Shown: positions 2,712 to 57,453, counted from the first letter of the stretch. The stretch is DNA of 64,000 nucleotides from Candidatus Tenderia sp. (GCA_031416075.1 JANOSY010000031.1:64001-128000), one strand, 5' to 3'. Numbers and translations are program-made. The notes: generated from the sequence alone by a model not told the origin.

Positions 2712-2778
2712 AACAAGTTCTCCAATCAATAATTTTTAATTCTATGCCATAACATACAATTCAATTCATATGAATTAA

Positions 2779-8895: not shown

Positions 8896-8973
8896 TAATT
8901 GGGGCCTGTTGTGTGTGCAAAGGTCTACTGACACTATAAAAATCCATTCTCCCCCGACATTGAAACTACAGTG

Positions 8974-10167: not shown

Positions 10168-10433
10168 TCGACGATCTGGAAGAAGACTTCATCTTTTTTG
10201 ACCATGCCCAACTCGCTGCGGGCACGCTCTTCAATCGCCTCTACACCCTGCTTAAGGTCTTGCACCTCAGCATCAAGGGCGGCATTACGTTCATGAATCT
10301 TGGCGTTCTCCGCCTTCTGTTTTTCGATGGAGTGATGTAGCCGCGAAACCTCGGCCAGACTCCCCTCGCCTACCCATAGCCGGTATTGCAGACCGGCCAA
10401 TAGAATAATCAGTATGACGTTGATCCACTTCAT
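10164..10433 (-). CDS. ftsB: Cell division protein FtsB
   Basis: LQYRLWVGEGS, AIEERARSELGMVK; eno-ftsB-ispD synteny; ATG at 10433. Confidence 0.95.
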   Translation of the reverse strand: MKWINVILIILLAGLQYRLWVGEGSLAEVSRLHHSIEKQKAENAKIHERNAALDAEVQDLKQGVEAIEERARSELGMVKKDEVFFQIVE

Positions 10434-10475
10434 GAGGTATGCCGTCGGCAATACGCCGACGGCCTCGGTTTCACC

Positions 10476-11798
<1,323 letters not shown>

Positions 11799-16423: not shown

Positions 16424-18658
16424 CTATTTTAATAACATCTCTACTGCACCACGCCACGCAACAGGTGGTGTCTGCACATAACGCTGACAGAGTTTTAGAT
16501 AAAAAGCACTGGGGCCATCCTCTGGGTAACGCATGGCCAGGCGTTGGAACATAATTAGTGACTCATTCCATGCCTGTGAAAAAAACAGCGCTTGTGCCAG
16601 TTCAAAGTCAGCGCATAAAACCTGCTCTGCCATTGAGTGTTGACTGGTATAACCCAGCAGCTCATGAAGGGTGACGGCCTGCTCTTTACCTACCAATATA
16701 AAACACCCCAATTTTCGCGTGACTATTCCCATTACGTTTTGCAGCACCTCTTCCGAGGCGATGACGTTAGTACCGAGCTGTTTATTCAACCCCTGAATAC
16801 GTGACGCAGTATTAACGATATCACCCACTGCACGATATTCGTAGTGGTCCAACGCGCCGATGTTTCCAATCATCATCTCCCCGGCATGAAGACCTATACG
16901 TGTATGCAATACCCTGTTTTGCTGCTGACTGAATTTAACCGCAGCAGCAGCAATATCAAGCGCGGCTTCACACGCCTGTTGCCGCAACTGTGGCTCTGGC
17001 TGTGGTGAGGACCAGAGCGCTAACATTGCATCACCGATAACATCGGAGACGATGCCGTGATGAGCGCGCACCGGTGCAAAGAGTACTTCGTAGTAGGCGT
17101 TCATCAAATCACTTAATACGTGGGGGGCAAGCCTTTCTGCCAGATGGGTATAACGCTCTGCATCCGTTGCCAGGCAGATGCCGTACATTAACTGGCCGGT
17201 GGCTGTGATGGGGGTGGCGTTGTCTGCAAAATGGTCAGCTACATTGCGTGGTACATAGTGGCTGAATGCCTGATGTATCTGTTGCTGGCTGCGATGCACA
17301 TCACCATAACGACAGAGCAGTGAGACGACTAATGCAATCGGTGTTTGAATAAACAGCGGGACCACCCAGGGCAGCCATATATTGGCCACATTAAACAGGA
17401 TCGAGGCTGTCATCAGGTAGAGTCCCGCGATAGTAACGCTGCCAATCACTATCAACAGGGATGACGGTAACCGCCCAACCCCTGCAATAAAAAACCCATA
17501 CGCCGCTATTGATAACATAAAAACGGTTGCTGTCAGGGGTTGAAGGGTTGTCTCTTCCAGAACATTGGCAAATGTGGTGGCGGCAATCTCCACACCACTT
17601 ACATCGACACCGTTTGGTTGGGAGTAGACGGTAAAAAACCCATCTTTCTGTTCAGGCTGGCGATTTTCTGCGAAGCCTACAAACACTGCTTTGCCTCTGA
17701 ACCGGGCAAGTGTCTCAGCATCTCCCCTCAATACATCGGCATACTCTATGGTAGGTATGGTGTGGGGGGGGCCATACAGATTTAAATAAGGTCTATTTTC
17801 CCCAGTATATGTAGTCAGTAGCGCTTCGACCTGCTTCTTATTTGCATCGCCGGATAACGCTGACTGAGAGATGTTCTGTTTTATTTTTCTCAAAAGCACG
17901 GGATGTGTAAGCAGCATTTCACGCGCATCGGGGTTAAAACTGGTGGCGTCTTCATTCACTATCTTTTTTTCCAGTAACTGCTGCATTAATGCAGCATCAT
18001 CACCCGCCAGCTGCCGTAACCACTGCCTGACGGCTGGTGCGGTATAACGCTCCAGCGCCACAACGGGCAGTGTTGCAACATCGCCGGCAGAGGTATGAAA
18101 ACTCCAGAACTGACTAACACGTATGGGGACCTTGGGTAAAACAAAAGGCGCGACACCACTGGCCGCCTCTGCAAGTGCGGGAAAAGGCAGCACCAGCTGC
18201 TCCACATAGATATCACTGCTGCTGTTGTCCGTAATTTCACGTTTAAGATAGGCAAACAACAGTACGTTTCCGGCCCGCCGGGTGGCGTCCACCAGCAGCT
18301 GATCTGTTTTCGGATCCCGTGGTTCTTTAAAAAAAACATCAAATGCCACCACAGTGGCCCCTGCCTCGGCCAGCTGGTCTATAATCTGTGCATGCATCTC
18401 CCGTGGCCACTGGGCTGGATCATTGATCAATCCCAAACGATCAGCAGAGCCTTTGTCTATAGACACAAGCACAACATCAGCCGGGGGCACACGATGGCCA
18501 CGCAGTGTATATAGGGTTTCCAGGCCGATGTTTTCTTCCCAATCCAGTCCAAAAGGTAGAAAATAGCTCAACAGGCCAATGGCCGCTGTGGATAGACCTA
18601 ACAGCAGTACCTTGTTAAGCGCTACTGTTCTGCTAAAACGACGGCGTTGATCAGGCAT
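16424..18658 (-). CDS. CHASE2-domain membrane class III nucleotide cyclase
   Basis: CHASE2 motifs (VVLVSIDK, QWPREMHA, VVAFDVFF, VSGVEIAAT), three TM helices, cyclase motifs ATDAERYT, IGDAML, RIGLHAG, GDIVNTASRIQG; start could be 18691. Confidence 0.9.
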   Translation of the reverse strand: MPDQRRRFSRTVALNKVLLLGLSTAAIGLLSYFLPFGLDWEENIGLETLYTLRGHRVPPADVVLVSIDKGSADRLGLINDPAQWPREMHAQIIDQLAEAGATVVAFDVFFKEPRDPKTDQLLVDATRRAGNVLLFAYLKREITDNSSSDIYVEQLVLPFPALAEAASGVAPFVLPKVPIRVSQFWSFHTSAGDVATLPVVALERYTAPAVRQWLRQLAGDDAALMQQLLEKKIVNEDATSFNPDAREMLLTHPVLLRKIKQNISQSALSGDANKKQVEALLTTYTGENRPYLNLYGPPHTIPTIEYADVLRGDAETLARFRGKAVFVGFAENRQPEQKDGFFTVYSQPNGVDVSGVEIAATTFANVLEETTLQPLTATVFMLSIAAYGFFIAGVGRLPSSLLIVIGSVTIAGLYLMTASILFNVANIWLPWVVPLFIQTPIALVVSLLCRYGDVHRSQQQIHQAFSHYVPRNVADHFADNATPITATGQLMYGICLATDAERYTHLAERLAPHVLSDLMNAYYEVLFAPVRAHHGIVSDVIGDAMLALWSSPQPEPQLRQQACEAALDIAAAAVKFSQQQNRVLHTRIGLHAGEMMIGNIGALDHYEYRAVGDIVNTASRIQGLNKQLGTNVIASEEVLQNVMGIVTRKLGCFILVGKEQAVTLHELLGYTSQHSMAEQVLCADFELAQALFFSQAWNESLIMFQRLAMRYPEDGPSAFYLKLCQRYVQTPPVAWRGAVEMLLK

Positions 18659-18846
18659 TAAAGGTATGGCTCTTATGAGTATGCAATCCAACGAAAGTGA
18701 GCATTTTGCCGAGCGGGGTCTGCTTGTGCAAGCAATGATGCCGGTATGTGATGGGATTCTAGGCTACACTGAGGCGCTGTTGAATAGATGGCTGGGGGCG
18801 CAACCATTATCCAATTCTCAGGCATGTAACCAAAGGATAGATAGTA

Positions 18847-19524
18847 ATGCACCACAATATTTCTGATGATTTATCTGCCACATTAAAACGTGTGCCACTG
18901 TTTGCGGCCCTGGATGATGATGAGCTGGAGGCTGTTCGCCCCCATATTGTGACGCGAAGTTATGCCAAAAACAGTGTCTTGATCACTGAGGGTGATGTCA
19001 CGGACTCGCTCTATATCATTTTAAAAGGCAAAGTCAAAGTCTACCTGAGCGATGACCGCGGCAGAGAGGTTATCCTGAGCCAGCAGGTACCAGGGGAATA
19101 TTTTGGTGAACTGGCTCTGATTGACGACGCCGAACGCTCTGCTTCGGTGATGACTACAGAACCCTGTACTTTTGCAATTATTACCAAACAGGCATTTAAA
19201 GATATCCTGGCAGCCAACCCCAGTATCGCCATTACCCTGATCAAGGATTTGAGCCACCGCGTCCGCACGCTGACCGACAACGTTAAAAGCCTGGCGTTAA
19301 TGGATGTTTACGGCCGTGTCGCCAAAACCTTGTTGAGCCTGGCCCAACAGTCTGGCGATAAGCTATTAATTGATGAAAAGCTGACGCAACAGGATATCGC
19401 CGACCGGGTTGGGTCTTCACGCGAAATGGTGTCCAAGATACTAAAAGACCTGACCAATGGCGGTTATATTAGTGTTGATCACAAGCGTATTGTAATTAAT
19501 GAACGGCTGCCTGCACGTTATTAA
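18847..19524 (+). CDS. Crp/Fnr family transcriptional regulator
   Basis: cNMP-binding FGELALID...RSASV; HTH LTQQDIADRVGSSREMVSKIL. Confidence 0.93.
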   Translation: MHHNISDDLSATLKRVPLFAALDDDELEAVRPHIVTRSYAKNSVLITEGDVTDSLYIILKGKVKVYLSDDRGREVILSQQVPGEYFGELALIDDAERSASVMTTEPCTFAIITKQAFKDILAANPSIAITLIKDLSHRVRTLTDNVKSLALMDVYGRVAKTLLSLAQQSGDKLLIDEKLTQQDIADRVGSSREMVSKILKDLTNGGYISVDHKRIVINERLPARY

Positions 19525-31172: not shown

Positions 31173-32521
31173 GATGAGCTGTTGCCCCCTTTTGCCCGCG
31201 CCTGCCTATCCAACTCACGCAAGTGGCTCAGCTTATCGGCAATCTTATTCTCAAGTCCACGCGGTACTGGGTTGTAGTAGCACCGCTCACCCATCGCTTC
31301 AGGAAAGTAGTTTTCACCGGCGGCATAGGCATCGGGTTCATCATGGGCGTAGCGGTAGCTCTTGCCGTAACCGAGCTCTTTCATCAGTTTAGTGGGCGCG
31401 TTGCGCAGATGCACTGGCACTTCATAGGAGCCATGTTTTTTGATCTCGGCCATGGCTGCATTGAAGGCGGCATAAACGGCATTGCTCTTCGGTGCAGAGG
31501 CGAGATAGATCACTGCTTGGGCGATGGCCAGCTCCCCTTCAGGACTGCCAAGCCGCTCCTGTACATCCCAGGCGTTGAGCGCCACTTCAAGCGCCCGTGG
31601 GTCGGCATTACCGATCTCCTCGCTGGCCATGCGCACCACCCGTCTGGCGATGTAGAGTGGATCACAACCGCCGTCGATCATGCGCACAAACCAGTAGAGC
31701 GCGGCGTCGGGGCTGGAGCCACGCACCGACTTGTGCAGCGCTGAGATTTGATCGTAAAAGGCCTCACCGCCTTTATCGAAACGGCGTGGCGCGCCACCGC
31801 TGAGGATTTCATTGATCAGCTCTTCACCAATCACGTCACCCTCCTCCCCCGGCTGCGCCAGATCGGCGGCGATCTCTAAAAAATTGAGGGCGCGGCGGGC
31901 ATCGCCGTCAGCCACTTCGGCCAGACGGTCACGCAGCACTTCAGCCATTAACAATGGTTTACCGATACCGCGTTCGTGATCACTCAGGGCACGGTCGATG
32001 ATCTGACGAATCTCCTCAACACTCAGACTGCGCAGCACATAGACACGGGCCCGCGACAGCAGCGCGTTGTTGAGTTCAAACGAGGGATTTTCGGTGGTGG
32101 CGCCAATAAAGGTGAAGGTGCCATCTTCAACGTAAGGGAGAAAGGCATCCTGCTGCGCCTTATTGAAGCGGTGTACCTCGTCGACAAACAGCACTGTTGA
32201 ACGTCGCTCAACATCGCGGGCGTACTGCGCCTGTTCAACGGCGGCACGGATCTCCTTTACCCCACCCAGCACGGCGGAGATACTGAGAAACTGGGCATGG
32301 GCGCGATGGGCCAGCAATCTTGCCAGGGTAGTCTTGCCGGTGCCGGGCGGCCCCCAGAAGATCATGGAGTGGATGCGGTCGGCCTCAATCGCCTGCCGCA
32401 ACGGTTTGCCCGGTCCTAATAGATGGCCCTGGCCTACATACTCGGCCAGTGTTTGCGGACGCATGCGGTCGGCCAGTGGTTTCCACACTGGCGCACGGCC
32501 CTCATCCAGCAGGTCCCGCAT
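31169..32521 (-). CDS. rarA: Replication-associated recombination protein A
   Basis: [40 protein letters not shown]. Confidence 0.97.
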
Positions 32522-33159
32522 TATTTCTTGGTCGTCTCGTCGATCACATCCACCCCCTTAGGAATGGTGAATGCAAAGGTATCGGCAGCGACGCTGCTAT
32601 TGGTCTGTACGTTATCAAACTGAATGTCAGTCTGCTGACCAAAACCATCTTTAATCTCAAGACGATGGAGCTGTTTCTGTTTAAGCCCGAGCAGGATGTT
32701 TTCAAAGCCGCTCTCTTTGGCCTTGGGTGTCAGCTCAAACCACTGCAAACCGTCGTTGCGCTGCACCGTGCGGATCTTGAACTCACTCTCCAACTTGCTG
32801 CTATTACTGAGCAGTGATGCGGGCGAACCGGCCAGTGCCTGATCCTGAGATTTAACGGTTACCTGTTCAAGATCAACATCATAGAGCCAGACCTTTTTGC
32901 CGTCGGCCACGATTTCCTGCTCATAAGGGGCCTGGTAGTTCCAGCGGAACTTGCCAGGGCGTTGAATCACCAGACGACCCCGCATCTGCTGCTGCACATT
33001 GCGCTGCTGATCCAAAATCTCCTGGGTAAAATCAGCCTTCAGGGTTTTATAGCTGAACAGCGCCTTCAGCTCGGCCTCACCTTCGGCATGGACCAGCGGC
33101 GCAGCCATTAATAGAGACGCGGCCATCGTAAAACGGATAAATAACTTTTTCAGAGACAT
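32521..33159 (-). CDS. lolA: Outer membrane lipoprotein chaperone
   Basis: [36 protein letters not shown]; ATG 33159 preferred as start. Confidence 0.95.
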
Positions 33160-33237
33160 ACAAATACCTATGTAAAATCGATCAAGCCGCAAGGGCAAAA
33201 CGCCCCTGACCCTTGCACATCACTAATGGAACAACCA

Positions 33238-34476
33238 TTACACCCTCCCAGCCCTGGGCAAAATAGTCTTCACGTAATCGTCCGTCGCATCAAAAACTGG
33301 TTCAACCTGATTAAACTTCATCATCAGAGGAATCACCTTCGTACGTACCCCCATGCCACGAGAATCGACATAGGCGTAATCACGAAGGATATCCATAATT
33401 AACGTATTTCGTGGCGATCGCTGCCCTGCGATCATCTTGCTAATAGTCATAGAGTTTTGAAATTTTCCGGGGCTAATAACTTCTAACCGGTCCGAGTAAT
33501 TGGTTACTTCTATGTCTACCGCCCTAGTCCAGTCACGATGCGCCAGAGCATTGACGACCGTTTCGCGAACCGCTTCCCAAGGATAAAACTCTATCTTTTC
33601 TCGGCGCATGTGTTCGTCAATGCTAGCCGCCTCTAGTGTAATAAAAGGAGCTATGGCTGCCGCGAACTTTTCGATCAGGCCTTCATCGACCAACTGTTTC
33701 CCCCCAGTCTCGTTGATTTTCCATCTCCCAACGAGCGGCGCATCCAGCACTATATCCAGCAAAGCTTGGTACTCTTTTTCTGCCCCGGCAAAGGCCATTA
33801 CGCGCAATCCTGCTTGCCGAAGAAATCGCCGTGGATTGATTCCGAAACAGATCAATCCGGCTACTGAGCAAACTGTATTCCCGAGCCCATCGGAAGCCAT
33901 CAGGCCAAGGCCCAATAAACGTTCCTCCCATACTGAGTCTAGCGTGGGAACATCAGGGTCGTTTATTATGTTCGATAGGTAATAGTGCAGTCTCTCCAGG
34001 TCAAGATCAGCCAAAGAGGTCCCCGCCACAGGAAGGACTTCAACATGTAGTAGTCCTCCGCTTTCAAAAAGCCGCAACTGTTGTTCTCGGGAAGCCAGTT
34101 CTGAACGATTCCCCATGCGGATGTAAATCTCTTCGCGATTGTTATGTTTCAACATGTAAGGTTTGGAAATGCCGGACGCAATCGTAATAACAGCAACTTG
34201 GTGCTGATCATCAATCTTTATCTCCTCATAAAAGGGGATAATTTGAGGAAAGATTTTGTCACGAAATACATTCAGAACCCATTCCTGGGTATTCTTTTGT
34301 TGGAGCCCTGATATTGTTCCATCATCCTCAACGCCGAGGATCAACCTGCCACCTTGAAGGTTTGCCAAGGCTACTATTTCTTTGGCTAACTGTTCTGGAC
34401 GAATATCGTCACGTTTGAATTCCACCCCGGAATTTTCACCGTTAGCGATGATTTCCAATAATTCAGCTTTTAACAT
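33238..34476 (-). CDS. Schlafen/AlbA_2 domain plus HATPase_c_4 ('RecG C-terminal'-like) protein
   Basis: GENSGVEFK, ALANLQGGRLILGVEDDG, YIRMG; RETVVNALAHRDW, EVISPG, PRN, DSRGMGV; no C-terminal HTH visible. Confidence 0.85.
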   Translation of the reverse strand: MLKAELLEIIANGENSGVEFKRDDIRPEQLAKEIVALANLQGGRLILGVEDDGTISGLQQKNTQEWVLNVFRDKIFPQIIPFYEEIKIDDQHQVAVITIASGISKPYMLKHNNREEIYIRMGNRSELASREQQLRLFESGGLLHVEVLPVAGTSLADLDLERLHYYLSNIINDPDVPTLDSVWEERLLGLGLMASDGLGNTVCSVAGLICFGINPRRFLRQAGLRVMAFAGAEKEYQALLDIVLDAPLVGRWKINETGGKQLVDEGLIEKFAAAIAPFITLEAASIDEHMRREKIEFYPWEAVRETVVNALAHRDWTRAVDIEVTNYSDRLEVISPGKFQNSMTISKMIAGQRSPRNTLIMDILRDYAYVDSRGMGVRTKVIPLMMKFNQVEPVFDATDDYVKTILPRAGRV

Positions 34477-34484
34477 GGTTGGCC

Positions 34485-37193
34485 TCAGTATCCGTATTTG
34501 GCTTTACGCTGATTGAAGGCAGTCTTTCCGCCTTCAAGAATATTGGCGGCTTTATCCCGGATTTGTGTTACATCAATGGCGCCTTGCGATTCCGCAGGCA
34601 TTTTCGATTGACCCTCTTGCACCTCAAAAACACCGATCCATTCGGCATCACCAAACACCGGTATATTTGCGTTGTGCGTTGCAAAGATGAATTGGCGGGC
34701 TATTTTTGCCGACCTTAATTCCGTCACAATGCGATCCGCAATAAAGGCGTTATCCAGATTATCTTCTGGCTGATCCATAAGCAATGGATCAAGATTCTGC
34801 AGCAGCAGAAGATGCAAAATCGCTGTGCATTGCTGGCCGGTGGATAACCTATCCAGCGGCCTAAAAGTTTCCGCACCCTCATGCGCTGTGTTCAACTCAA
34901 TACTGATCAAGTCAGGCAATTCAATCTCTTCCAGCTTAAGAAGCTGTTCGGTTGTGAGGCGTAACAGAGCATTCTCTACTGTAGATGTCATTCCCCATTT
35001 TTTGAAATCCAACGACACAAGGGCAGCATCAAAAGTTTCCTCACTGTCGTCACGCCTGGCATCGGCGTATTGCCGCACCATTTCAGCCAGTTTAACCGGC
35101 GAAAAATCGTCTGCTTCATGCACCCAGGCAAGCCTGGCTTCGCCAACGTTCTCCAGTTTGCAGCCCAACAGGAATTGAATCACTGGCGCGCGATCAGCTT
35201 CAGGTTTAACCGTCAATTTCAGTTTGCTTGAAAGTCGTTTATTCAAACGCTTCAGTGATCGCTCAAACTGTGCTGATCTATCCGCACGGATGGATGATAA
35301 ATCATCAAGGATGGCTCTGCGTTGCCTGGATAGCTCGGTTACAACCTTGGTGCGGTTATCAATCATCGTTTTCTTTGGCCGAATTCGCTCAATTTCTTTT
35401 AACAAGCGCTGGAACTCAAGACCAATTTCCTTACCCGTTTTTCCTTCAGAGGCTGGCAACTCCTTGAAAGTTTTTTCCAATACCGACTCTTCTTGTTGTA
35501 TCGCCGCATCCAGTGCCTGAGCGTGTGATGCCATCGTGGCTTTCGCAGTGGCATATTTTTGTTGCCACTGACTCAGCAGTGCTTCGGCATCCCCACGGAG
35601 CGCATCCAATGTTGCACGCATCTTGCGCAGGTTTTCGGCATGGGGAAGATGGCCAATGGCTGCGTCACTCAGGAATACGGTATCGGGCAGGCTGTCGCGC
35701 ACAGCCTGGAAAGCCGTATCAAGATTTGGGCCTTCTTCTTCTATCGCCCTTTTCTGTAGGCGCTTTTCTGTCTCCAGTAGCGGCACTATTTTAAGTTTAT
35801 CTTCCAGCCCGAGTACTTTCAATTGGCCTACCTGTTCTTCCAGTTTCGGAAGAAGTGCGACCTCATCTTCAATGGATGCCACAGCAGCTTGTGCTTCGAT
35901 CAACTTCTTTCTGTTCTCTGCCAGCTTACTTAACGACTCCTGAATACGCGCCTCGCCGTCCTGTTGTCCAGCGTCCAGAAACCGGGTCAACAATTGCCGC
36001 TGACTGGTTTTGTCTTGGGCAATTTCGTATATCTCGTTCTGCCCGTAGATTTCAATTCCGGGCAACAGGTCAATCGGCGTAAATGTCGATAAGTTCCCGT
36101 TCTCATCCTTCACACTGGTACTTTCACCATAACGCCGCGCAACCGTAAAACTTTTGCCATTCATTCGAGAGGAACGGATCACCAGCTCTATTCGGCCCTT
36201 GGATGGTTTGCCCAGATTTTCTTTGACGATTTCATCATGTTTTTTTTGTGCATCTTTGCCTATGGGTTTCAGTTGCAAGGCGTAGCGGATGCACTCAAGT
36301 AGTGTCGATTTCCCTGTTCCTCGTCCACCAATCACTGCATTCAGATGTTCGGAAAATTCAATTTGAACGCCATCCAGATACCCGTCCGTGATTCTCAGGC
36401 TTTCGATGCGGGAATAGTATTTCTCGGTAACGTCAGTGTTCAAACGCACCCGTGATTCAGGGTCTTGAAATGCCAGCTTGAAAGACTCAAAACAGGGCCG
36501 GGTCATTTTGATCAAGCAGGATGCTTTTGGGTTTGTTAGCGTTTCTGGTTGTTCCACATCCTTGGCATTGATAATGGCAACCGGCTGCTCGCGCTTGTAT
36601 TCCGGCGTCTTGTTTTGGAGGATTTGTTGATAGCCATAGCCTTCTCCGTTTGTCAGGTCGTCAAGTGTGCCGGGTATCTGAGCGGCCTTTAGCAAGGGAT
36701 TTTGCCAGACATGGTTAAGTTTTTGATACAGGACGCCATTGTCATCCGTGCAGTGAGCCGCAAAAGCAAATCCACCAAGCTCTTCAACCTTTGCAAGTAG
36801 ATCCTTTCCGCTGAAATTTGAAGGCCAAACACCATTGGCGGGATTGGTCAAACCTAGCGCGCCTAAAAAACGGTTGAGTTGATCTATTGACGTATTTTCT
36901 GGGAAAAGGCACACAAAGTGCGCTTTTTCGGTAGAGGCTATCTCGAAGCCGGGAAACACCAGGATGTCATGTTTATTCATCAGAGACCGGATGGCCTCCA
37001 CTCCATCCACATTGCCGTGATTCGCCAAGCCGATGACCTTGATCTCGTGTTCCTTGGCTATGCGCACCAGCTCTTGGTTGTACTGCTCTTCCGTCATTCC
37101 GTGATCACCACCACGATAGGCGATGTAACCCGCTGGGTTAACTTGTAGAGCGCACTTCCAGAATCTGGCTTTGGTGTATTGCTCAGACATCAA
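34485..37193 (-). CDS. PHP-domain plus SMC/ABC-type ATPase (Ppl/TrlF-like)
   Basis: N-terminal PHP-like motifs (FPGFEI, AHFVCLF, AAHC), Walker A GGRGTGKST, long coiled coil, LSTGQQ, LMDQPEDNLD, ATHNAN. Confidence 0.85.
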   Translation of the reverse strand: MMSEQYTKARFWKCALQVNPAGYIAYRGGDHGMTEEQYNQELVRIAKEHEIKVIGLANHGNVDGVEAIRSLMNKHDILVFPGFEIASTEKAHFVCLFPENTSIDQLNRFLGALGLTNPANGVWPSNFSGKDLLAKVEELGGFAFAAHCTDDNGVLYQKLNHVWQNPLLKAAQIPGTLDDLTNGEGYGYQQILQNKTPEYKREQPVAIINAKDVEQPETLTNPKASCLIKMTRPCFESFKLAFQDPESRVRLNTDVTEKYYSRIESLRITDGYLDGVQIEFSEHLNAVIGGRGTGKSTLLECIRYALQLKPIGKDAQKKHDEIVKENLGKPSKGRIELVIRSSRMNGKSFTVARRYGESTSVKDENGNLSTFTPIDLLPGIEIYGQNEIYEIAQDKTSQRQLLTRFLDAGQQDGEARIQESLSKLAENRKKLIEAQAAVASIEDEVALLPKLEEQVGQLKVLGLEDKLKIVPLLETEKRLQKRAIEEEGPNLDTAFQAVRDSLPDTVFLSDAAIGHLPHAENLRKMRATLDALRGDAEALLSQWQQKYATAKATMASHAQALDAAIQQEESVLEKTFKELPASEGKTGKEIGLEFQRLLKEIERIRPKKTMIDNRTKVVTELSRQRRAILDDLSSIRADRSAQFERSLKRLNKRLSSKLKLTVKPEADRAPVIQFLLGCKLENVGEARLAWVHEADDFSPVKLAEMVRQYADARRDDSEETFDAALVSLDFKKWGMTSTVENALLRLTTEQLLKLEEIELPDLISIELNTAHEGAETFRPLDRLSTGQQCTAILHLLLLQNLDPLLMDQPEDNLDNAFIADRIVTELRSAKIARQFIFATHNANIPVFGDAEWIGVFEVQEGQSKMPAESQGAIDVTQIRDKAANILEGGKTAFNQRKAKYGY

Positions 37194-37261
37194 ACGCCTT
37201 CCCTTTTATATTTATTCTCGTGAATAACATGGCTTCAGCGGATTTAAAAAAATGCCCACAC

Positions 37262-39574
37262 TCAATCCTTGGGAGGGGGGGGAGCCAGCACTTCACGGTT
37301 GCCGTTGGACTGCATCGGGCTGACGACGCCGGCGCGTTCCATATCTTCCACCATGCGGGCGGCGCGATTGTAGCCGATTTTAAGGCGGCGCTGAATGCCA
37401 GAGACCGAGGCGCGGCGCGATTCAGTGACGATCCTGACCGCTTGATCATAAAGCTCGTCGGCCTCATCGCTGCCGTCAAAACCACCGCCCATGCCATCAC
37501 CATCGGTACTTGGGCCATCGAGGATCTCGTCGATGTATTCCGGGGTACCGAGCTGTTTCAGTGCATCGACCACCTTATGTACCTCATGGTCGGCTACAAA
37601 GGCACCGTGTACCCGTGTCGGCACATTGGTGCCGGAGGGTTGATAGAGCATGTCACCGTGGCCAAGCAACGACTCGGCGCCACTCTGGTCGAGGATGGTA
37701 CGTGAGTCGATCTTCGATGAGACCTGAAAGGCGATACGGGTCGGGATATTGGCCTTGATCAGACCGGTGAGTACATCAACCGAGGGGCGCTGTGTGGCCA
37801 ATACCAGATGGATGCCGGAGGCACGGGCCTTCTGCGCCAGGCGGGCAATCAGCTCTTCCACCTTTTTGCCCACCACCATCATCATGTCCGCCAACTCATC
37901 CACAATCACCACAATGTGTGGCAGCGGCTCCAGCGGCGGACGGATCTCGTCCGGTGACATCATCTCAATAAAGGGATCGCGGATCGGCTCGTCACTCTCC
38001 AGCGCCTCTTTTATCTTTTTGTTGTAGCTGCTCAGGTTTCTCACCCCCACATAGGCCATCAGCCGGTAGCGACGATCCATCTCCACCACACACCAGCGCA
38101 GGGCATTGGCGGCGTTTTTCATATCGGTGACAACCGGCGTCAACAGATGGGGAATCCCCTCATATATAGAGAGTTCCAGCATCTTGGGGTCGATCATGAT
38201 CATGCGTACCTCTTCGGCGGTGGCCTTGTAGAGCATGCTCAGGATCATGGCGTTGATACCGACCGACTTACCGGAACCGGTGGTACCGGCCACCAGCAGA
38301 TGGGGCATTTTGGCCAGGTCGGCCACCAGCGGCTGACCGGAGATATCCTTGCCCAGCGCCAGGGTGAGGGGCGATAGCGCATCGTCATACTGCTTTGATT
38401 GCAGGATCTCGCTCAGACGTACCGTCTCACGATGTTCGTTGGGGATCTCCAGACCCACCGTAGTTTTGCCAGGGATGATCTCCACCACCCGCACACTGAT
38501 AGCCGAGAGTGAACGGGCCAGATCTTTTGAGAGATTGCTGATCTGGCTGACCTTAACACCTACACCAGGCTGCATCTCAAAACGGGTAATAACCGGGCCG
38601 GGGTGAACCTCCACCACTTCAACCTCGATACCAAAATCCTTAAATTTAATCTCCACCAGACGTGAGAGTGCCTCCAACGCCTCCACCGAAAAACCTTTGC
38701 CGGTATGTACCGCCCGATCCAGTAGCGCCAGGGGTGGTAACCCCCGCCTCTTATCTTCGTCGGTCAAAAAGAGTGGCTGCTGACGCTCCTGCTCTACACG
38801 TTTACTCACCTCAACCTTTTTGATCACCGGTTCGATGCGTGGTGGCAACCGTTTTTCCTGCTTTTTAGTCTCTGTCTGCAAGGCTACCGCACGTTCATGG
38901 CGCATCTGGCGCGCCGCCAGCCACTCACGCAGCCCACCAAACCAGCTGCGTACCAGAGCCGCAAACTCCAGACTCCAGCGCCCGGTCACATCCATCAGCC
39001 ACAACCAGGAGAGACCGGTAAAGAGTGTCACACCCGTCAGGAAAAGCGCCAGCATAAACAGCGTCGCCCCCACAAAACTGAACGGTTCTTCCAGAGAGTC
39101 GCTCACCACCCCCCCCAGAATCCCCCCCGGCGTCAGTGGCAATCCCAGCGGGGCCTGAAAATGGAGTGCGGCCAATCCACACCCGGCCATGACAGTCAGC
39201 ACAAAACCACCAAACCTCAGTACAAACTCTGTGGAGGTGACCGTCTCTTCCGACTTACGATCATGAAATATCAACCAGCCGCTGTAAGCGACCATAATAG
39301 GTATTAGATAAGAGAAGTACCCAAACAGATGCAATCCTACATCCGCAAACCAAGCCCCCACCACACCGCCGCTGTTGGCAATCTCATTGACATGACCACT
39401 GTGTGACCAGCCTGGATCGGTCGGTTCATAACTGCCCAACGAAATCATCAGGTAGAGCGCTACTGCGCCAAACAGGAATAGCGCCCCTTCACGTAAACCG
39501 CGCATCCCTTTAACCAAGCGCGCTGGACGTCCCAATCCACCCGCTGCATCCTTTTTTCGTCTTGCCTGTGCCAA
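37262..39574 (-). CDS. ftsK: DNA translocase FtsK
   Basis: 4TM N-terminus, [25 protein letters not shown], gamma domain [13 protein letters not shown]. Confidence 0.98.
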
Positions 39575-49707: not shown

Positions 49708-50013
49708 CTACGGTTTAACAGGGTCTCTATCGCTAACAAACAGCTGCTGGTAGTAACCAAGCTGACGCCGTAAAACCTCCCGTTCAACCGGCCGAAATAT
49801 CTCATCCACCACGGTAAATTGGAGCCTCTCAACAACAGCATCGGGGGACTCTGTTTGCCAGGGGATGATGGTGAGCCCCTTCGGCAATTCACTACTACCA
49901 AATATGCTTATCCCCTTTTTAATCTCCATCACCTCTTCCGCTGGCGCTGTAGTAACCACACCCGCCATTATGAATAGTAGAAAGATCGGGGCCAACCTCA
50001 GTCGCACCATCAT
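49708..50013 (-). CDS. Small exported protein, GltF-like
   Basis: Signal peptide; ISIFGSSELPKGLTIIPWQ and PVEREVLRR motifs; last gene of the TPR operon. Confidence 0.55.
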   Translation of the reverse strand: MMVRLRLAPIFLLFIMAGVVTTAPAEEVMEIKKGISIFGSSELPKGLTIIPWQTESPDAVVERLQFTVVDEIFRPVEREVLRRQLGYYQQLFVSDRDPVKP

Positions 50014-50639
50014 CTATTGGGCCCTGTTGTTGCTGCAGGCGTTTTAAGGCGCTGAGTCAGCTCTGCAATCCACATGGAGACCTGAGCATCATCATTGGAG
50101 GTCATAAATTGATAACGGATGTAGTGCTGTAACGCCTTTTCGCCCTCAAACAGATAGAGGTCATAAAGAATGCCAAGATTCAGGTAGGCATCGGCATACT
50201 CTTCATCCGCCGCAATGGCACTCTTGTATGCAGCCAGTGCTTCGTTGAAACGTCCACGCTCACGGTAGACCATGCCAAGACGATTTTGGGCTACAGCACT
50301 TTTAGGATTCAGCGCCACCGCCTTTAACAACGCTTCCTCCGCCTCATCGAGGCGACTCATTCTGTGATAGAGAATGCCCAGATTGACATAAGGACCGGAA
50401 TAATCAGGATGGCGCTCAATAAAAATATTGAGTTCTTTAATCGCCAGCGGATAGTTACCCTCGCGGATGCTGGTGAGCGCCAGATCATACTCCTGTTTCT
50501 GCAGTTCAAGCTGTCGTAACTGCTCCGCCGTTAAAGGTATAGGCGCTGCATCACTCTGCTCAATCGACGTTGTTGCACATCCACTCAAGTACAGCCCCAG
50601 CAAGATTGCCGCCACCGCTTTACTGCAACGCTTCAACAA
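50010..50639 (-). CDS. TPR lipoprotein (GltE-like)
   Basis: Lipobox LSGC; TPRs; AYLNLGILYDLYL...ALQHY. Confidence 0.75.
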   Translation of the reverse strand: MLKRCSKAVAAILLGLYLSGCATTSIEQSDAAPIPLTAEQLRQLELQKQEYDLALTSIREGNYPLAIKELNIFIERHPDYSGPYVNLGILYHRMSRLDEAEEALLKAVALNPKSAVAQNRLGMVYRERGRFNEALAAYKSAIAADEEYADAYLNLGILYDLYLFEGEKALQHYIRYQFMTSNDDAQVSMWIAELTQRLKTPAATTGPNR

Positions 50640-53415
50640 TGCTGGCCCCTTTTTCAGATTTTGAATACCGTACCGGCAATAACTCTTTGAGCTTGCCGTA
50701 GCTCTTTTTCACCCAGGTATCGTAAACGCCGCTGGAAACACGCTGGGTATTTGACTCAAGAATCGCAATGGCCTTCTCCTCAAATGGAAAGGCCTGCTCT
50801 TCAAGCATGATGTTGTACTCCTCCAGCTCATCCCGCCCCAACTCTTTGGGCCGTTCGGACTCCATCAAGTTTTTACTGAACTGGTAATAAATTTCACCTA
50901 TGCGATAGGTAGAGGCTGTCACCACGTCAGAGACACTGTATGTGGCCGCCTGGTTATAGGCGCTCAGTGCATCTTCCATGCGCTCTTTTTTTATCAGCAG
51001 ATTTTTGGCCAACGGCTCAACCAGTTTAACGCTCTGAAATGCACTCAACTTTCCCTCTGCCATATCCAGGGCCGCCTGTGCCACAAGGTATCGGCTTCGA
51101 TCGGTATGCCCAGGGCGATCCAGCTCAACATCCATCAGCTGTGTTGTTATAAAATTGGACCGTGCAGTCTGCCCCAGTGCCAGGTAAAGCTGGCTCAGGC
51201 GATAACGTGCCTCGATCTGCTGACTGTAAGGCTCTGCAAATTGCAGCAGATAAAACTCATACACATTGGCGCTGCGGTCGAGCTGTCTGGCCTTTTCATA
51301 AAGCTCGGCTGACTGCCACGCGGCCTCCCTTTTTACATCCACTGAGTGGTCGGCACGGGCGATTTTCTCATACTCTTCCGCGGCCTGAACCCCTTTGCCA
51401 GACTCCATGTAGACCAGTGCCAGTTTAAAGGGCAGCTCCTGCTGCAGCCCATGCTCTGGATAGCTTTTTCGGAAATGTTCCAGTGTTGTGATCGCTGCAT
51501 CCCACGCCTTCATCTCAATCAGGACTGAGGCCGCTTCATATTCTGCCTGTATGCGAATATCCGCCGCTGGGGCAACGGCGGATATTCTCAGGTAGTCATC
51601 CACCGCTGCGGTCATGTTGCCCACCGCCTGTTTCTCTTTTGCCTGTTTGTAGATGGAGGCTGCCAGCCACTCAAACGCCACCGGCTTAACACTTCCTTTA
51701 CTTCGCGCCAGTGCTATCGCCTGCTGATATGAACGTTCAGCGTTGCGGTACTCTTTCTGCTCGTAATAGCCGTGGGCATTCACCGTCCACGCCGCCTCAA
51801 GCAACTCAGGCGCTGCATTCTCACCCATGGTGATTACGCGCTGGGCCAACATCTGTGCCTTATCGAACTCTTTGGCACCGTAGGCCTCTTGCGCCAGAGT
51901 GGTCATGATCGTCGCCATGCGGCTATCGTCTGGATAACGCTCGGCATACTGCAATAGATTGGCAGTCTGTTTATCACTCCACTCTTTCTGTGTCTCCGGG
52001 CCGATCGTTTTCAGTAGTTCGCGGTAGGCCAGGATGGCGGCGTAACCCGCCTCCTGAGAGTTGGTGCTGGCAGGAAACTCGTACGCAACACGTTCATACT
52101 CTTTGCTGGCCTCGGCGTAACGTTTGCCCTCGTAGAGCATGTCCGCCAACAGGTAGTGGATCTTGGCCTCATCTTTGTCATTGGGCAGATCCCGCAAATA
52201 GGCGCGATACCAGTTCTCTGCCAGATTGTAATCGGACTCACGTTTCTCTCTCTGCGCCACCGCATGGTAATACTGGGTAATATCGGTCAGCGCCAACCGC
52301 ACATTGGGCATCAACTGGGCGCGAACTTTATCGTTGTAATTTATCCACAGACTACTACTAGGGCCATAGACCTGAACAAAGTGCTTTTTAGCACTCAATA
52401 CCGCATCAGGCTTCTCTGCCAGGGCAAAGATATCAAACAGTTTCAACTTGAAAAATGCCGCCTGCGGCTCCTTCAGATAACGGACAGAGTAGGTTGTGTA
52501 GATGTTCACCGCGTCCTGATAACGCTTTTGGCGCAGATAAAAATCGGCCAACGTCTGGTAGATCACGTGGTCGTAGTTTTTGCGGCCACGTTTGGCAATC
52601 TGTGCCTCGATGCGATCGACACTGTTGACGTATGAGAAGACCAGCGCGACAGCGTAGAGGGTATCGTCGATCAGCTCCTGATCCGTCTGCCCCACAGGTA
52701 GCGCGGCAAACGGGTCTCCATCCAGCTCCAGTGGTACCAATTTAAGATCGAGAAGGGAGAAAAACGATACCAGCGCCTGGTCAAACTGGTCCAGCTTCAA
52801 CATATTCCAGCCATGTTTATGCAAGGCCAACTCATAAAAGCGGGATGTTTCACCAAGCTCCACCACACTATGGAACACCCTGGCCGACGCTTCGTACTCA
52901 CCATCCACAAAAAACAGCTCACCGCGACGGAACTGCACCTCGGCATAAAGTGGGCTACTGGGGTACTCTTCTGCCAGCCTTGCCAAGGCTGCCATTGACT
53001 CATCCACCATTCCCAGCCGTTCATAGGCCTGGGCCAGTTGGTAGAGCACCTGATCATTACCAACAAAATCGGGGTAACTCTGGAGCAACTCCTTATATAT
53101 ATCAATGGAGACCTGATACTCCTTAATATCACCAGCACTTAATGGCGTGACGGTTTTGACCTCTTTGTCCAATCCGGTCTCCAGCTCCAGATCGGCCAGC
53201 CGCTTCATGGCTCGGGCACGAAAACGGTTATCAATATCCTGCTCCATCGTCGAACGGTAATATTTCATGGCATCGTTGCGATTCACCTCAACCGGTGTAT
53301 CAACATCAATCACCACCTTGGAACGCTCCATGCTCCCTAACGTCAACTCCTTTGAGCCACTACAGGCGACCAGTAACAGGGTCGCCAGGACGAGCAGGGA
53401 TATACGACGCATCAT
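50620..53415 (-). CDS. Large TPR lipoprotein (GltD/AgmU-like)
   Basis: Lipobox LVAC; DQVLYQLAQAYE, EVQFRRGELFF; C-terminal LEEQAFPFEEKAI. Confidence 0.75.
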   Translation of the reverse strand: MMRRISLLVLATLLLVACSGSKELTLGSMERSKVVIDVDTPVEVNRNDAMKYYRSTMEQDIDNRFRARAMKRLADLELETGLDKEVKTVTPLSAGDIKEYQVSIDIYKELLQSYPDFVGNDQVLYQLAQAYERLGMVDESMAALARLAEEYPSSPLYAEVQFRRGELFFVDGEYEASARVFHSVVELGETSRFYELALHKHGWNMLKLDQFDQALVSFFSLLDLKLVPLELDGDPFAALPVGQTDQELIDDTLYAVALVFSYVNSVDRIEAQIAKRGRKNYDHVIYQTLADFYLRQKRYQDAVNIYTTYSVRYLKEPQAAFFKLKLFDIFALAEKPDAVLSAKKHFVQVYGPSSSLWINYNDKVRAQLMPNVRLALTDITQYYHAVAQREKRESDYNLAENWYRAYLRDLPNDKDEAKIHYLLADMLYEGKRYAEASKEYERVAYEFPASTNSQEAGYAAILAYRELLKTIGPETQKEWSDKQTANLLQYAERYPDDSRMATIMTTLAQEAYGAKEFDKAQMLAQRVITMGENAAPELLEAAWTVNAHGYYEQKEYRNAERSYQQAIALARSKGSVKPVAFEWLAASIYKQAKEKQAVGNMTAAVDDYLRISAVAPAADIRIQAEYEAASVLIEMKAWDAAITTLEHFRKSYPEHGLQQELPFKLALVYMESGKGVQAAEEYEKIARADHSVDVKREAAWQSAELYEKARQLDRSANVYEFYLLQFAEPYSQQIEARYRLSQLYLALGQTARSNFITTQLMDVELDRPGHTDRSRYLVAQAALDMAEGKLSAFQSVKLVEPLAKNLLIKKERMEDALSAYNQAATYSVSDVVTASTYRIGEIYYQFSKNLMESERPKELGRDELEEYNIMLEEQAFPFEEKAIAILESNTQRVSSGVYDTWVKKSYGKLKELLPVRYSKSEKGASIVEALQ

Positions 53416-55283
53416 GGATGCTCCTTCTGTATATGTTGGGCCTCATCATAAATCTGCGCCACGGCAAACAGTGCCTGACTTCGATACGCTTCAACCTGAA
53501 ATTTCACACCCGCCACGGCTGATTGTGCCAAGTGCTGCAAACGCGCCTCTGACGCCTGTGCCAGATTTTTTGTCTGTTGTTGCAGGCGTTCTGTCTGATG
53601 ACGTCGTGCCTGCAACGTTTGGCGATAATGGTCAAAATTGCCGGGGCTCCGCTCAAGAACACTGTTCAACCGCTGCTGCTGGCCACGACTCTCAGCCAAC
53701 CTCTCATCCAGCTGCTGTAGCTGCTGTTTTGCCCGCCATAAACGTGCCGGATACTCACTCTCCAGCTGCCAGAGTAGCCCTCCTTGCAGCACGGTGAGTT
53801 TACGCCGCTGCTTATCAATCTCTACGCGCCCCTCAAGCTGCTGCAACCGTTTTTCAACCTGGGTCAGTTGTACCCAGCGCTGCTGCTCTTCCGCTGTTGT
53901 CAGGTCCATGGCATCTTCCTGCGCCTCGATCCCCTGTAACCTCTGGGTGTGGGCATCACGTTGCTGCTGAAGTCTCTCCCCTTCGAGCTTGGCCAGCGCC
54001 TTCAAAATGGTTGGCAGGCGTCTTTCGTAGCCGGTTTGGCGCGTATCTACCATCGCCTCATAGGCCTCCAGATCATCCCGCCAGCGGGATAAGTTCGTCT
54101 CCAGATGGAGCAGATCACGATAGTTGCGTAACGCCTCCTGAAATTCATGGCCCGCCATCACGCGGTAGAGGTAAGGTGTCAATGTCGTCTCCGGGGTCAG
54201 CTCGGTACGCCAGTGCCAGCCTGTTTCAGCTGCGCCACGTGGGTCCACTAATTCGTGTGCCAGGGCGGTAAAATTCATGCCGGCAATAATTCCTTCCAGG
54301 GTTGTCAGCGCTTCGTTATAGTGCTCAATCGCTGTTTGATAATGATCCAGCGCCTGCTGTCGTGCGCCAAGTTGATTGAAGGTATAGGGTACCGCTAAAA
54401 GCCCCTCCAATACAGCGGGGTCTGAAACATTCCGTTCAATCAAAGGCAGCCAGATCGCCAACGCCTCTTTGCCGCGCCCCATGCCAGACTCTACCCATCC
54501 CAACCCCAACAGCGCCTGGCTGACAAACGGGCTGTTAAGCCGCACATGTTCAAACCAGCCCTTGGCTGCAACAAACTCTTTTTTTCGTAAGTGGCTGTAC
54601 CCTAAAGCAATTCTGCTTTTATCGTACAGCTCAGTACGTCCTGGCTCACCGCTATCACCCTGTTGCAGCAGCGCTGCCAGCAGGGGCCGGCCCTGCTCAT
54701 CACGTCCCTCGCGGATATGGTGAAGTGCCAGATTGTATTGGGCAAAACCGCTATCCAGGGAGTTGGGCCGATAACTGGCCAACTGTGCCGCTGCTTCGGT
54801 ATAGAGACCTCGCTGGGCCAGCAGGATACTGGTTAACTGCTGACGTTCATCCTCCTGCCCGGTTGGCAACTGGGTATCGAGCCGTTGTAACAGTTTTGCC
54901 GACTCAGTGTGGCTACCACTCTTGTAATGGATGTTTGCCAGCGCTAACCAGACACGGTTGCGCTGTGTTGGGGTGAGCTGGTTTTTAAGCAGTCGGCTAA
55001 AGATCGCTTCGGCATTTTTTTGCATGCCGTAGGAAAAATAGAGTCCCCCCAACAGCAGCTCCGCCTCAACCCCCTGATTAGGCAGACGCCCTACCTGTTG
55101 CGCGGCACTCAGCTGGATGATGGCGGAAAAGTAGTTCTGCTGATAAAAATCAAACAACACCTCTCCATAAAAGGGGTCTTTGACTACCGCTGGGAGCGCC
55201 TGCTCTGCCTTAACGGCAGCAGTCACCGCCATCAAACAGGGCAACAGGCAGAGCAAGACAGAACCTTTCACCCCTACTCCCAA
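53412..55283 (-). CDS. TPR plus coiled-coil exported protein
   Basis: Signal peptide; VKDPFYGEVLFDFYQQNYFSAI; TPRs; C-terminal coiled coil. Confidence 0.75.
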   Translation of the reverse strand: MGVGVKGSVLLCLLPCLMAVTAAVKAEQALPAVVKDPFYGEVLFDFYQQNYFSAIIQLSAAQQVGRLPNQGVEAELLLGGLYFSYGMQKNAEAIFSRLLKNQLTPTQRNRVWLALANIHYKSGSHTESAKLLQRLDTQLPTGQEDERQQLTSILLAQRGLYTEAAAQLASYRPNSLDSGFAQYNLALHHIREGRDEQGRPLLAALLQQGDSGEPGRTELYDKSRIALGYSHLRKKEFVAAKGWFEHVRLNSPFVSQALLGLGWVESGMGRGKEALAIWLPLIERNVSDPAVLEGLLAVPYTFNQLGARQQALDHYQTAIEHYNEALTTLEGIIAGMNFTALAHELVDPRGAAETGWHWRTELTPETTLTPYLYRVMAGHEFQEALRNYRDLLHLETNLSRWRDDLEAYEAMVDTRQTGYERRLPTILKALAKLEGERLQQQRDAHTQRLQGIEAQEDAMDLTTAEEQQRWVQLTQVEKRLQQLEGRVEIDKQRRKLTVLQGGLLWQLESEYPARLWRAKQQLQQLDERLAESRGQQQRLNSVLERSPGNFDHYRQTLQARRHQTERLQQQTKNLAQASEARLQHLAQSAVAGVKFQVEAYRSQALFAVAQIYDEAQHIQKEHP

Positions 55284-55831
55284 CTGCTAATGGTAAATTC
55301 AGGCTGCTGTTTGGCTGCGGAGTCACTGATCCTAATCTCGATAAATTGAGGCTCCAGCCCCTTTTCAAAAAGATAGCTGGCGGCACGGCGATAGTCGCGG
55401 CCATTAGGACCCTTGCCGCTAAACAGGGCGACCAGCTCATGTTGGCCACTGCGCAGGTTTTCAATATGGAGCCGCTGCACACCGCCCTTGGCCAACGCGT
55501 TCACTTCACGTTCGGTATAGAGGTAGTGGGTCACCGATTTACCATCGATTTTCAACTCGACCGCGTCAAGCGCAAAAAAGAGCCCACTGTTCATGGCAAG
55601 AAAAATGGTGGTCTGGGTGGTGGCAGGAAAGAGTAGCTCCTCTTCCAGAATAAACAGTTCACGGTTGAGATCAAGCACCTCTTTTTTTAGATCCTCCACC
55701 TGCTCACTCAGGCCACCTGCTGCGGCTCTACTAACCTCCTCCGCCATCACTATCGACATACTCACAGGCAACAGCCAGAGCAAAAACAGCCCCGCCAACA
55801 ACCGTTTTATTGCACCCTTCATCACATCCAT
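55274..55831 (-). CDS. Conserved exported hypothetical protein
   Basis: Signal peptide, coiled coil LKKEVLDLNRELFILEEELLFP, HYLYTERE..AL.KGGVQRL. Confidence 0.7.
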   Translation of the reverse strand: MDVMKGAIKRLLAGLFLLWLLPVSMSIVMAEEVSRAAAGGLSEQVEDLKKEVLDLNRELFILEEELLFPATTQTTIFLAMNSGLFFALDAVELKIDGKSVTHYLYTEREVNALAKGGVQRLHIENLRSGQHELVALFSGKGPNGRDYRRAASYLFEKGLEPQFIEIRISDSAAKQQPEFTISSWE

Positions 55832-55841
55832 TCCTACAACC

Positions 55842-57434: not shown

Positions 57435-57453
57435 GGTTATCTCTCAATCCCTG

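Follow-up and report, generated by a model that had tools for sequence, protein, structure and literature searches.

A TrlF-TrlG-type gene pair between ftsK and lolA of Candidatus Tenderia as a candidate two-gene defence module

The closest described relative of the locus analyzed here is the 'temperature restriction locus' (TRL) of Photorhabdus laumondii DJC, consisting of trlR, trlF and trlG (Hapeshi et al. 2020, PMC7554251). According to that paper, trlR encodes 79 amino acids (aa), trlF a PHP protein annotated 'histidinol phosphatase', and trlG, mis-annotated as recG, a protein with an AlbA_2 domain at residues 14-128 and a HATPase_c_4 domain. Spontaneous mutants tolerating 36 °C carried trlG substitutions, stops or insertion sequence (IS) insertions; all mapped mutations of the tolerant isolates lay in trlG and none in trlF, which is twice larger (PMC7554251). 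Deletion of the operon lifted the arrest at 36 °C and its supply in trans brought the restriction back; transcription rose when cells were brought to 36 °C and as they neared stationary phase, and after the up-shift growth stopped and most cells remained viable (PMC7554251). Here, we analyzed two genes, A and B, on the minus strand of a 64,000-nt stretch of Candidatus Tenderia sp. (GCA_031416075.1 JANOSY010000031.1:64001-128000; hereafter the window), which, as judged from profile scores, form a member of this already described TrlF-TrlG family and which we consider as a possible immunity module.

Each of the two protein families also has relatives studied in the context of phage defence. Ppl, a single-gene anti-phage system, is described in a review as a PHP 3'-5' single-stranded DNA exonuclease gated or released by nucleoside triphosphate depletion and 3'-OH ends. 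Prokaryotic Schlafens are reported to be phage-triggered tRNases that abort infection; the Schlafen-HisKinase form without a helix-turn-helix (HTH) domain makes up 34.0% of them and is the commonest form, compared to 19.2% with HTH. Of seven Schlafen genes reportedly expressed on their own, robust protection came only from two fusions, one with DUF262 and one with an Ig-like domain. Cleavage of tRNA or RNA and ATP-driven oligomerisation are reported as established for RzAgo and RorSlfn5, and Schlatpases have been described as neighbours of type I restriction subunits or as fusions to them. A TrlF partner is not mentioned in the accessible parts of the Schlafen and SLFN-pAgo texts: the words ATPase, PHP and operon are absent from the main text of the Nature Microbiology Schlafen paper, and PHP, TrlF, Rad50, ABC and SMC from that of the SLFN-pAgo preprint. 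In one source-data sheet of the Schlafen paper, 'Gao_Ppl__PplA' occurs 76 times near Schlafen genes; each of the 15 rows shown has two. For Schlafen-linked systems, a BREX paper cites Krishnan et al. 2020, which deals with ABC ATPases of conflict systems, and an earlier computational description of the TrlF-Schlafen pairing may be found there. No other microbiological use of the name 'TrlG' appeared among the literature matches listed.

Gene A passed the NCBIfam model TrlF_fam_ATP (NF045780) with 563.8 bits (cutoff 350), its residues 9-901 aligning to positions 3-944 of the 944 of the model. The first-pass annotation had taken it for the PHP-ATPase Ppl, but against Ppl_antiphage (NF042955) it reached only 179.9 bits (cutoff 1000; residues 72-896 aligned to model positions 72-878 of 882), and it also failed the Spaf_1101 family (213.6 bits, cutoff 475). 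The PADLOC comparison suggested in the same annotation did return its Ppl model on A at 126.1 bits, though the match is partial (model positions 221-888 of 894), as well as an N-terminal SLFN-pAgo match on B, in which residues 28-366 align to the SLFN-GHKL part of the model (2e-17). Because the TrlF cutoff is passed and the Ppl cutoff failed, we assign gene A to the TrlF family, as a sister of Ppl with the same layout and not Ppl itself.

While the Pfam PHP model gave no score on gene A at E<=0.01, a profile built from 34 N-terminal domains of the family matched the Protein Data Bank entries 3e0f (1.4e-5), 9etk (1.8e-5) and the exoribonuclease 7ug9 (6.8e-4), and the language-model look-alikes of this domain in an atlas were PHP clusters at 0.95. 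Residues H59, E84, H92, H147 and D212 are invariant in 34/34 sequences, and motif I, by a position-based assignment, holds a near-invariant Q17/N19 instead of the usual His-x-His. The AlphaFold2 (AF2) model of A, with a mean predicted local distance difference test score (pLDDT) of 87.2, has an ABC head split by long antiparallel helices (409-445, 469-500, 519-577 and 587-653). The Walker A, signature (LSTGQ, 783-787), Walker B (D807/E810) and H-loop (H840) motifs are invariant across 37 sequences and are followed by a conserved C-terminal tail. A Foldseek search with the model retrieved heads and coiled coils of Smc, MukB, Lamassu LmuB, Wadjet JetC and Rad50; the LmuB match, among the best, is to 9hqu_A (E 6.1e-9), in a nuclease-sequestration complex.

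For gene B, the acidic Schlafen motif, the GHKL-like domain and the lack of a C-terminal HTH domain noted in the first-pass annotation agree with the Pfam matches and motif positions. SLFN_AlbA_2 was found at residues 14-128 (81.1 bits, cutoff 25.3) and HATPase_c_4 (PF13749) at 321-405 (57.2 bits, cutoff 26); Pfam had no further family on B and NCBIfam none at all. No HTH family was detected at E<=0.01, and the protein ends seven residues past the GHKL domain. The motifs of B are E14-x4-E19-F-K21 and G48-V-E-D-D-G53. In the aligned partners of A-like genes, E14, K21 and D23 are each present in 58/58 and E19 in 56/58 (D in the other two), and the GHKL residues E305, N309, H313, R314, S335, G337, N341 and G376 are invariant in all 58. 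The AF2 model of B (pLDDT 89.6) matched over its full length the uncharacterised 3lmm (E 3.5e-20); its N-terminal domain retrieved the SAMD9 tRNase domain and SLFN11/12/13/14, and its C-terminal domain the catalytic (CA) domains of histidine kinases. Among 62 partners with a callable open reading frame (ORF), 58 measure 393-430 aa, and the HTH-less form is therefore the rule in the clade of B. This, together with the prevalence of HTH-less Schlafen-HisKinase proteins cited above, does not sustain the view that the missing HTH is a departure from the usual form.

The transfer of published TrlG substitutions to B was attempted, but only 4 of the 13 wild-type residues (16, 35, 36 and 126) match the numbering of the P. 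akhurstii homologue; tentatively, Ser16, inside E14-x4-E19, would be the sole TrlG substitution transferable to B. Modules resembling B at 53-57% identity also occur in two longer proteins, P0394 (824 aa, with DUF4062) and P0396 (1203 aa), the latter with some 800 extra residues without similarity to A. The Schlafen-GHKL module thus seems to move between architectures.

To define the linkage of the two genes, species-representative genomes were scanned with a profile of A, which gave at least 591 confirmed loci, and the best 80 (30-76% identity) were kept. B lies directly 3' of A on the same strand in 64 of these 80 loci, and the pairing is kept down to 30% identity in A. The intergenic distance ranges from -4 to 38 nt (median 11, 58 loci), and the pairwise identities of A and B are correlated (Mantel r 0.85 over 52 pairs; 0/2000 permutations as high). 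A third conserved gene was not found: of 320 flanking ORFs, three per side, 259 were singletons, and the largest cluster had 5 members. In the P. akhurstii pair (L018), A is 50% and B 62% identical to the present ones. In the tables of A and B homologues, 27 clusters tally in the size of their longest contig, by our own reading a hint of linkage. The first-pass annotation had proposed a two-component system that rare co-occurrence of the genes would speak against; neighbourhood analysis gives the opposite of rarity, and the proposal stands as a conserved, co-inherited pair, although not as a new combination, being the published trlF-trlG.

The remaining 16 loci hold TrlF without B. On a FastTree of 72 A sequences they are scattered (10 changes), save for one Bacillota clade of four, and therefore appear to reflect mostly repeated loss of B. 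Between paired and solo TrlF the largest gap in conservation lies at residues 496-525, with F507 in 97% versus 29%; this coiled-coil apex may be taken as a lead for a TrlG contact site and no more. A complex prediction with A residues 396-660 and full-length B scored 0.00 ('no answer'), which is evidence neither for nor against binding.

On plasmids, A-like genes found with A as the query stood alone in 4/4 records inspected. With B as the query, 52 records were found and 40 of them listed; 30 of these rows overlap a TrlF or 'histidinol-phosphatase' feature and 4 more have A adjacent, and 3 of the 6 unclear rows, on inspection, held one intact A, one frameshifted A and one A cut by IS26. In L088 (840-3516) trlF is split over two frames, and in L089 (2251-3516) it is truncated beside IS26; in both, the downstream trlG is still an open frame. 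Distant B genes (28-29% identity) of IncC and Pseudomonas plasmids still adjoin or overlap a TrlF gene, and each close B inspected adjoined A or a remnant of A. In phage genomes, 5 records had distant A-like genes and 14 distant B-like genes, with zero overlap. One of these phages, Yersinia phage vB_YenM_42.18 (36 kb), encodes at 8633-11230 a full-length but distant relative of A, which bears the annotation 'chromosome partition protein' and is 24% identical over 99% of the query; the phage record holds no relative of gene B. Two candidate natural A-B fusions were rejected: P0365 (1354 aa), with PHP, ABC, SLFN and GHKL domains in order, lacks the conserved C-terminal tail of A at the junction, and P0395 joins a frameshifted A fragment to B. 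Both are taken as read-through or frameshift products and are not counted.

The immediate-neighbour scan of the pair loci took in 113 of 115 ORFs, two of L032 being left out as a duplicate of L031. These are two contigs of one metagenome-assembled genome with identical pair copies and the same flanks over several kb, by duplication or assembly redundancy. Defence-type neighbours were found in 17 pair loci (hsdS/hsdR, PglZ, PglX-like methylase, type III mod/res, DUF1156/DUF499, SNF2, HEPN, McrB-like and DUF4411), and solo TrlF genes neighbour type I restriction, McrBC, BREX PglZ/BrxL, a TOTE-type gene, conjugation genes and an integrase. Two operon orders occur on plasmids, hsdR-trlF-trlG-hsdS-(anticodon nuclease)-hsdM and hsdM-hsdS-trlF-trlG-hsdR. 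A trlR-like HTH_73 gene accompanies 3/64 pair loci. The pair thus has a defence-like context: it often lies within type I/III restriction, BREX or related operons, and it occurs on IncC plasmids, in keeping with the earlier suggestion of a candidate defence locus. In the tree of A, phyla are intermingled: one tight clade unites Chlamydiota, Geobacter and Methylococcales, and an ANME-1 archaeon is also included. With its at least 591 loci for A, its many phyla and its presence on clinically common IncC plasmids, the TrlF-TrlG module is common.

Two of these settings deserve description in their own right. The IncC operons at L081 4377-12181 and L090 880-8143 comprise hsdR, trlF, trlG, hsdS, an AAA ATPase/'anticodon nuclease' and hsdM and adjoin a Tn7-like tnsD; trlG overlaps trlF by 19 nt there, and two RNA nucleases are predicted per operon. 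At L039, a distant Schlafen-GHKL gene (676-1839; 26% identity to B) heads a BREX-type cluster with PglZ and BrxL, whose last members are a solo TrlF and then a TOTE-type primase-helicase-PLD gene.

In the window, the minus-strand order is ftsK, A, B, lolA, rarA, crcB and serS, with trxB on the far side of ftsK in divergent orientation (Table 1). The ORF coordinates agree with the first-pass description of two co-oriented genes 8 bp apart that interrupt ftsK-lolA; E. coli K-12, with trxB-lrp-ftsK-lolA-rarA-serS, has ftsK and lolA uninterrupted. A GAGG ribosome-binding site lies 8 nt before the ATG of B and overlaps the 3' end of A. One codon inside the TTG of A there is a second start codon, an ATG at 37190, and the collection copy of the protein (P0005) has 901 aa; the ATG is more likely the start. 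Because only 68 nt lie upstream of A, with no space for it, a trlR-like regulator gene is absent. The GC content of the cassette is 0.482, compared to 0.529 in the remainder of the window, and GC at third codon positions is 0.50 and 0.48 in the pair versus 0.61-0.65 in ftsK, lolA, rarA and serS. No tRNA gene was found within the window, no integrase among the neighbours of the cassette, and no flanking repeat at the cassette beyond short chance-size matches; a mobile-element scar at the insertion point was looked for with the tRNA and repeat scans and none detected. No minus-strand promoter-like site was called in the spacer 37194..37261, and the scans of the region were at chance for both promoters (5 versus a shuffle mean of 5.1) and terminators (3 versus 4.9). 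The cassette is a real, intact, foreign two-gene module, and horizontal acquisition of TrlF-TrlG is the best explanation for it.

Table 1. Position of the pair, its domains and its flanking genes in the window
Feature	Coordinates	Strand	Remarks
Gene A, trlF-like (PHP + SMC/Rad50-like ABC ATPase, coiled coil)	34485..37193	-	902 aa from TTG
Divergent PHP (polymerase/histidinol-phosphatase) domain of A, residues 1-262	36408..37193	-	Profile of 34 N-terminal domains
Coiled-coil arm of A, about residues 406-655; apex ~500-520	35229..35978	-	Helices in AF2 model
C-terminal half of the ABC head of A, residues 656-902 + stop	34485..35228	-	Invariant columns in 37-sequence alignment
Gene B, trlG-like (Schlafen AlbA_2 + middle domain + GHKL ATPase, 'Schlatpase')	33238..34476	-	412 aa, ATG
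Schlafen/AlbA_2 domain of B, residues 14-128	34093..34437	-	E14-x4-E19-x-K21
GHKL (HATPase_c_4) domain of B, residues 321-405	33262..33516	-	N-box E305/N309 just upstream
A-B spacer, 8 nt	34477..34484	-	Sequence read between A stop and B ATG
ftsK-gene A spacer, 68 nt	37194..37261	-	Sequence read, ftsK stop to A start
ftsK, upstream of A	37262..39574	-	FtsK_SpoIIIE, 4TM, alpha, gamma domains
lolA, downstream of B	32521..33198	-	LolA family; then RarA-like, CrcB, SerS

Elsewhere in the window, some 30 kb off, there is a second defence system, the already known two-gene PD-T4-4 (730-2729, minus strand; two overlapping ORFs of 479 and 187 aa; PADLOC scores of 413 bits, E 3.8e-124, for PD-T4-4_A and 37.9 bits for PD-T4-4_B). 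Seven tightly packed co-oriented ORFs of 209 to 931 aa, with TPR repeats, Laminin_G_3 or no family match, occupy 50010-61199 (minus strand). At 16424-19524, a CRP-like regulator on the plus strand (225 aa) and a CHASE2-sensor adenylate/guanylate cyclase on the minus strand (755 aa) are divergently oriented.

We consider it quite probable that the two proteins act jointly against phages or other mobile DNA, and likely that TrlG is an RNase effector. In the mechanism we propose, TrlG would be a Schlafen-fold RNase, most likely a tRNase, that stops translation and growth, and ATP binding by its GHKL domain would probably assemble the active oligomer. TrlF would be a PHP phosphoesterase or exonuclease mounted on an SMC/Rad50-like ABC ATPase, which probably monitors DNA for ends or unusual structures and may also degrade it. 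TrlF would hold TrlG quiet until it is itself engaged, disabled or unfolded; TrlF as a required activator of TrlG would be the less likely arrangement. Provided that the pair does have a joint role against mobile DNA and that TrlG is the effector, we lean slightly towards restraint, because the heat screen never struck the larger trlF, because TrlF persists alone in many lineages, and because close TrlG homologues are always beside TrlF or its remnant. By analogy, this restraint might take the form of sequestration of TrlG by TrlF. We infer, then, the RNase activity and substrate of TrlG, the sensing of DNA by TrlF, a physical contact of TrlF with TrlG, the direction of control and the role in phage defence. 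As a prediction, the defence role is well supported by context and relatives. The explanation as a whole, in which a horizontally acquired TrlF-TrlG pair is a mobile abortive-infection-type defence with TrlG as the effector gated by TrlF, is a tentative one.

The first-pass annotation had assigned sensing to A and execution to B. The catalytic Schlafen motif kept in all 58 aligned partners agrees with the part given to B; the sole genetics available, which struck only trlG and never trlF according to the TRL paper, does not agree with the part given to A. Indeed, A is taken to be more than a sensor, because it keeps nuclease-type PHP residues and occurs alone in 16/80 loci. A related alternative, which seems to us unlikely, is that TrlF is a required sensor switching TrlG on, with TrlG as the sole effector and the PHP domain devoted to sensing or of minor importance. 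It has precedents in Lamassu, PARIS and Gabija, in which SMC/ABC ATPases are reported to sense and control separate effectors; the folds nearest to A include LmuB in its nuclease-sequestration complex, and the pair is tightly linked and co-diverging. However, mutations should often strike a required activator that is twice as large as trlG, whereas the reported heat-tolerance mutations all fall in trlG; the invariant PHP metal-ligand residues point to catalysis over mere sensing, and A is kept without a partner in 16/80 loci.

It is improbable, in our assessment, that the pair is not an immunity module but a housekeeping-type growth governor that, as has been proposed for Photorhabdus, halts replication or growth when cells meet heat or another stress. 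The spread of the pair over phyla and plasmids is patchy and clearly horizontal, it is repeatedly nested in restriction and BREX operons, and both protein families have anti-phage relatives reported from experiment. The reported TRL behaviour, with transcription up at 36 °C and near stationary phase, a halt of growth and survival of most cells, would suit such a governor, as would the position of the pair among core genes in this window and at several other loci; yet trlR is found in only 3/64 pair loci and is absent here. Less probable still is that a Ppl-like nuclease and a stand-alone Schlafen-GHKL RNase are two independent single-gene defences sharing an operon because defence genes cluster: each type does exist alone (solo TrlF; Schlafen-GHKL as the commonest Schlafen architecture) and B-like modules do occur in P0394 and P0396, but 64 loci keep the same order, strand and near-zero spacing while nearly all their surrounding genes differ, A and B co-diverge with r 0.85, and the linkage is maintained down to 28% identity in B.

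Several observations weigh against the reading of the pair as a defence with TrlG gated by TrlF. The TRL phenotype is a temperature-dependent growth arrest, viewed by its authors as physiological adaptation and not as immunity (PMC7554251), and the literature search found no TrlF-TrlG pair that had been challenged with phages or plasmids. Enterobacterales Schlafen-HisKinase genes expressed alone reportedly gave no robust protection; the tested genes may or may not have had TrlF partners. TrlF occurs alone in 16/80 loci, including the Bacillota clade of 4, and also on plasmids, and therefore does not need TrlG. The broken A with intact B in L088 and L089 argues, as far as the reading frames indicate, against strict restraint or a toxin-antitoxin-like dependence. 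Q17/N19 at motif I means that the chemistry of A may differ from that of Ppl. Finally, the cassette sits inside a housekeeping operon, with no defence or mobility gene adjoining it in the window, and at least 10 other pair loci have housekeeping neighbours, for example purH, leuA, mnmE, smpB and rph.

What would be new here is that the TrlF-TrlG pairing is viewed as immunity; the parts were already known. The finding ties together the TRL growth-arrest locus of an insect pathogen, the Ppl nuclease-ATPase and the commonest, as yet uncharacterised, class of bacterial Schlafens, those with Schlafen and GHKL domains and without HTH. If the pair is a defence, stand-alone Schlafen-GHKL proteins gain a sensor or controller, the lack of protection by such Schlafen genes tested alone is explained, and the pair offers a tractable example in which an SMC-like ATPase that watches DNA is coupled to an RNase that shuts down translation. 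A more specific version, which we regard as doubtful, would make TrlF-TrlG a two-gene 'guard'-type anti-phage system, in which a Ppl-like DNA-end nuclease/SMC ATPase restrains a Schlafen tRNase until foreign DNA occupies TrlF, a phage inhibitor blocks it or heat unfolds it, whereupon the tRNase would fire. Were this true, the temperature restriction of Photorhabdus would be autoimmunity of a defence system, and restriction and BREX operons would widely contain TrlF-TrlG as a second layer.

Compared to the TRL operon, the present locus has both families in the same order, with gene A passing the NCBIfam model named after TrlF and an AlbA_2 plus HATPase_c_4 gene directly 3' of trlF, here after an 8-nt gap. 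Different from that operon, it has no trlR and lies between ftsK and lolA instead of at polA/dsbA as in Photorhabdus; the temperature phenotype is known from P. laumondii alone, while the present locus is known from its genes. Moreover, in the accessible part of the TRL paper (PMC7554251) the operon is not called a defence system, nor TrlG a Schlafen RNase. Gene A shares with Ppl (Gao_Ppl) its length class and its layout, probably a PHP nuclease on an ABC ATPase, but it scores far below the Ppl cutoff, usually has a Schlafen partner and carries Q/N at motif I. The two domains of B, its Ex4(E/D)xK motif and its GHKL E-x3-N box, which binds Mg/ATP in such proteins, are those of prokaryotic Schlafens such as the SLFN-pAgo RzAgo and pSlfn-HisKinase; unlike these, B is a separate small protein without an Argonaute, Ig-like or HTH sensor, and has a fixed partner in TrlF.

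Lamassu, in which LmuB keeps hold of the effector LmuA, and PARIS, in which AriA does so with the tRNase AriB, likewise combine an ABC/SMC-type ATPase with a separately encoded abortive-infection nuclease. The PADLOC LmuB and AriA scores on A are, however, weak, at 32-39 bits (best LmuB 32.3), no third gene resembling the kleisin-like LmuC of type II Lamassu accompanies TrlF-TrlG, the effector fold of TrlG is Schlafen and not Cap4 or TOPRIM, and TrlF has a PHP nuclease of its own. PrrC/EcoprrI belongs to unrelated protein families, and the pair in the window adjoins no restriction genes; what the two systems would have in common is a latent tRNA-directed nuclease placed among hsd genes, as on IncC plasmids, where trlF-trlG shares its hsd operon with an 'anticodon nuclease'.

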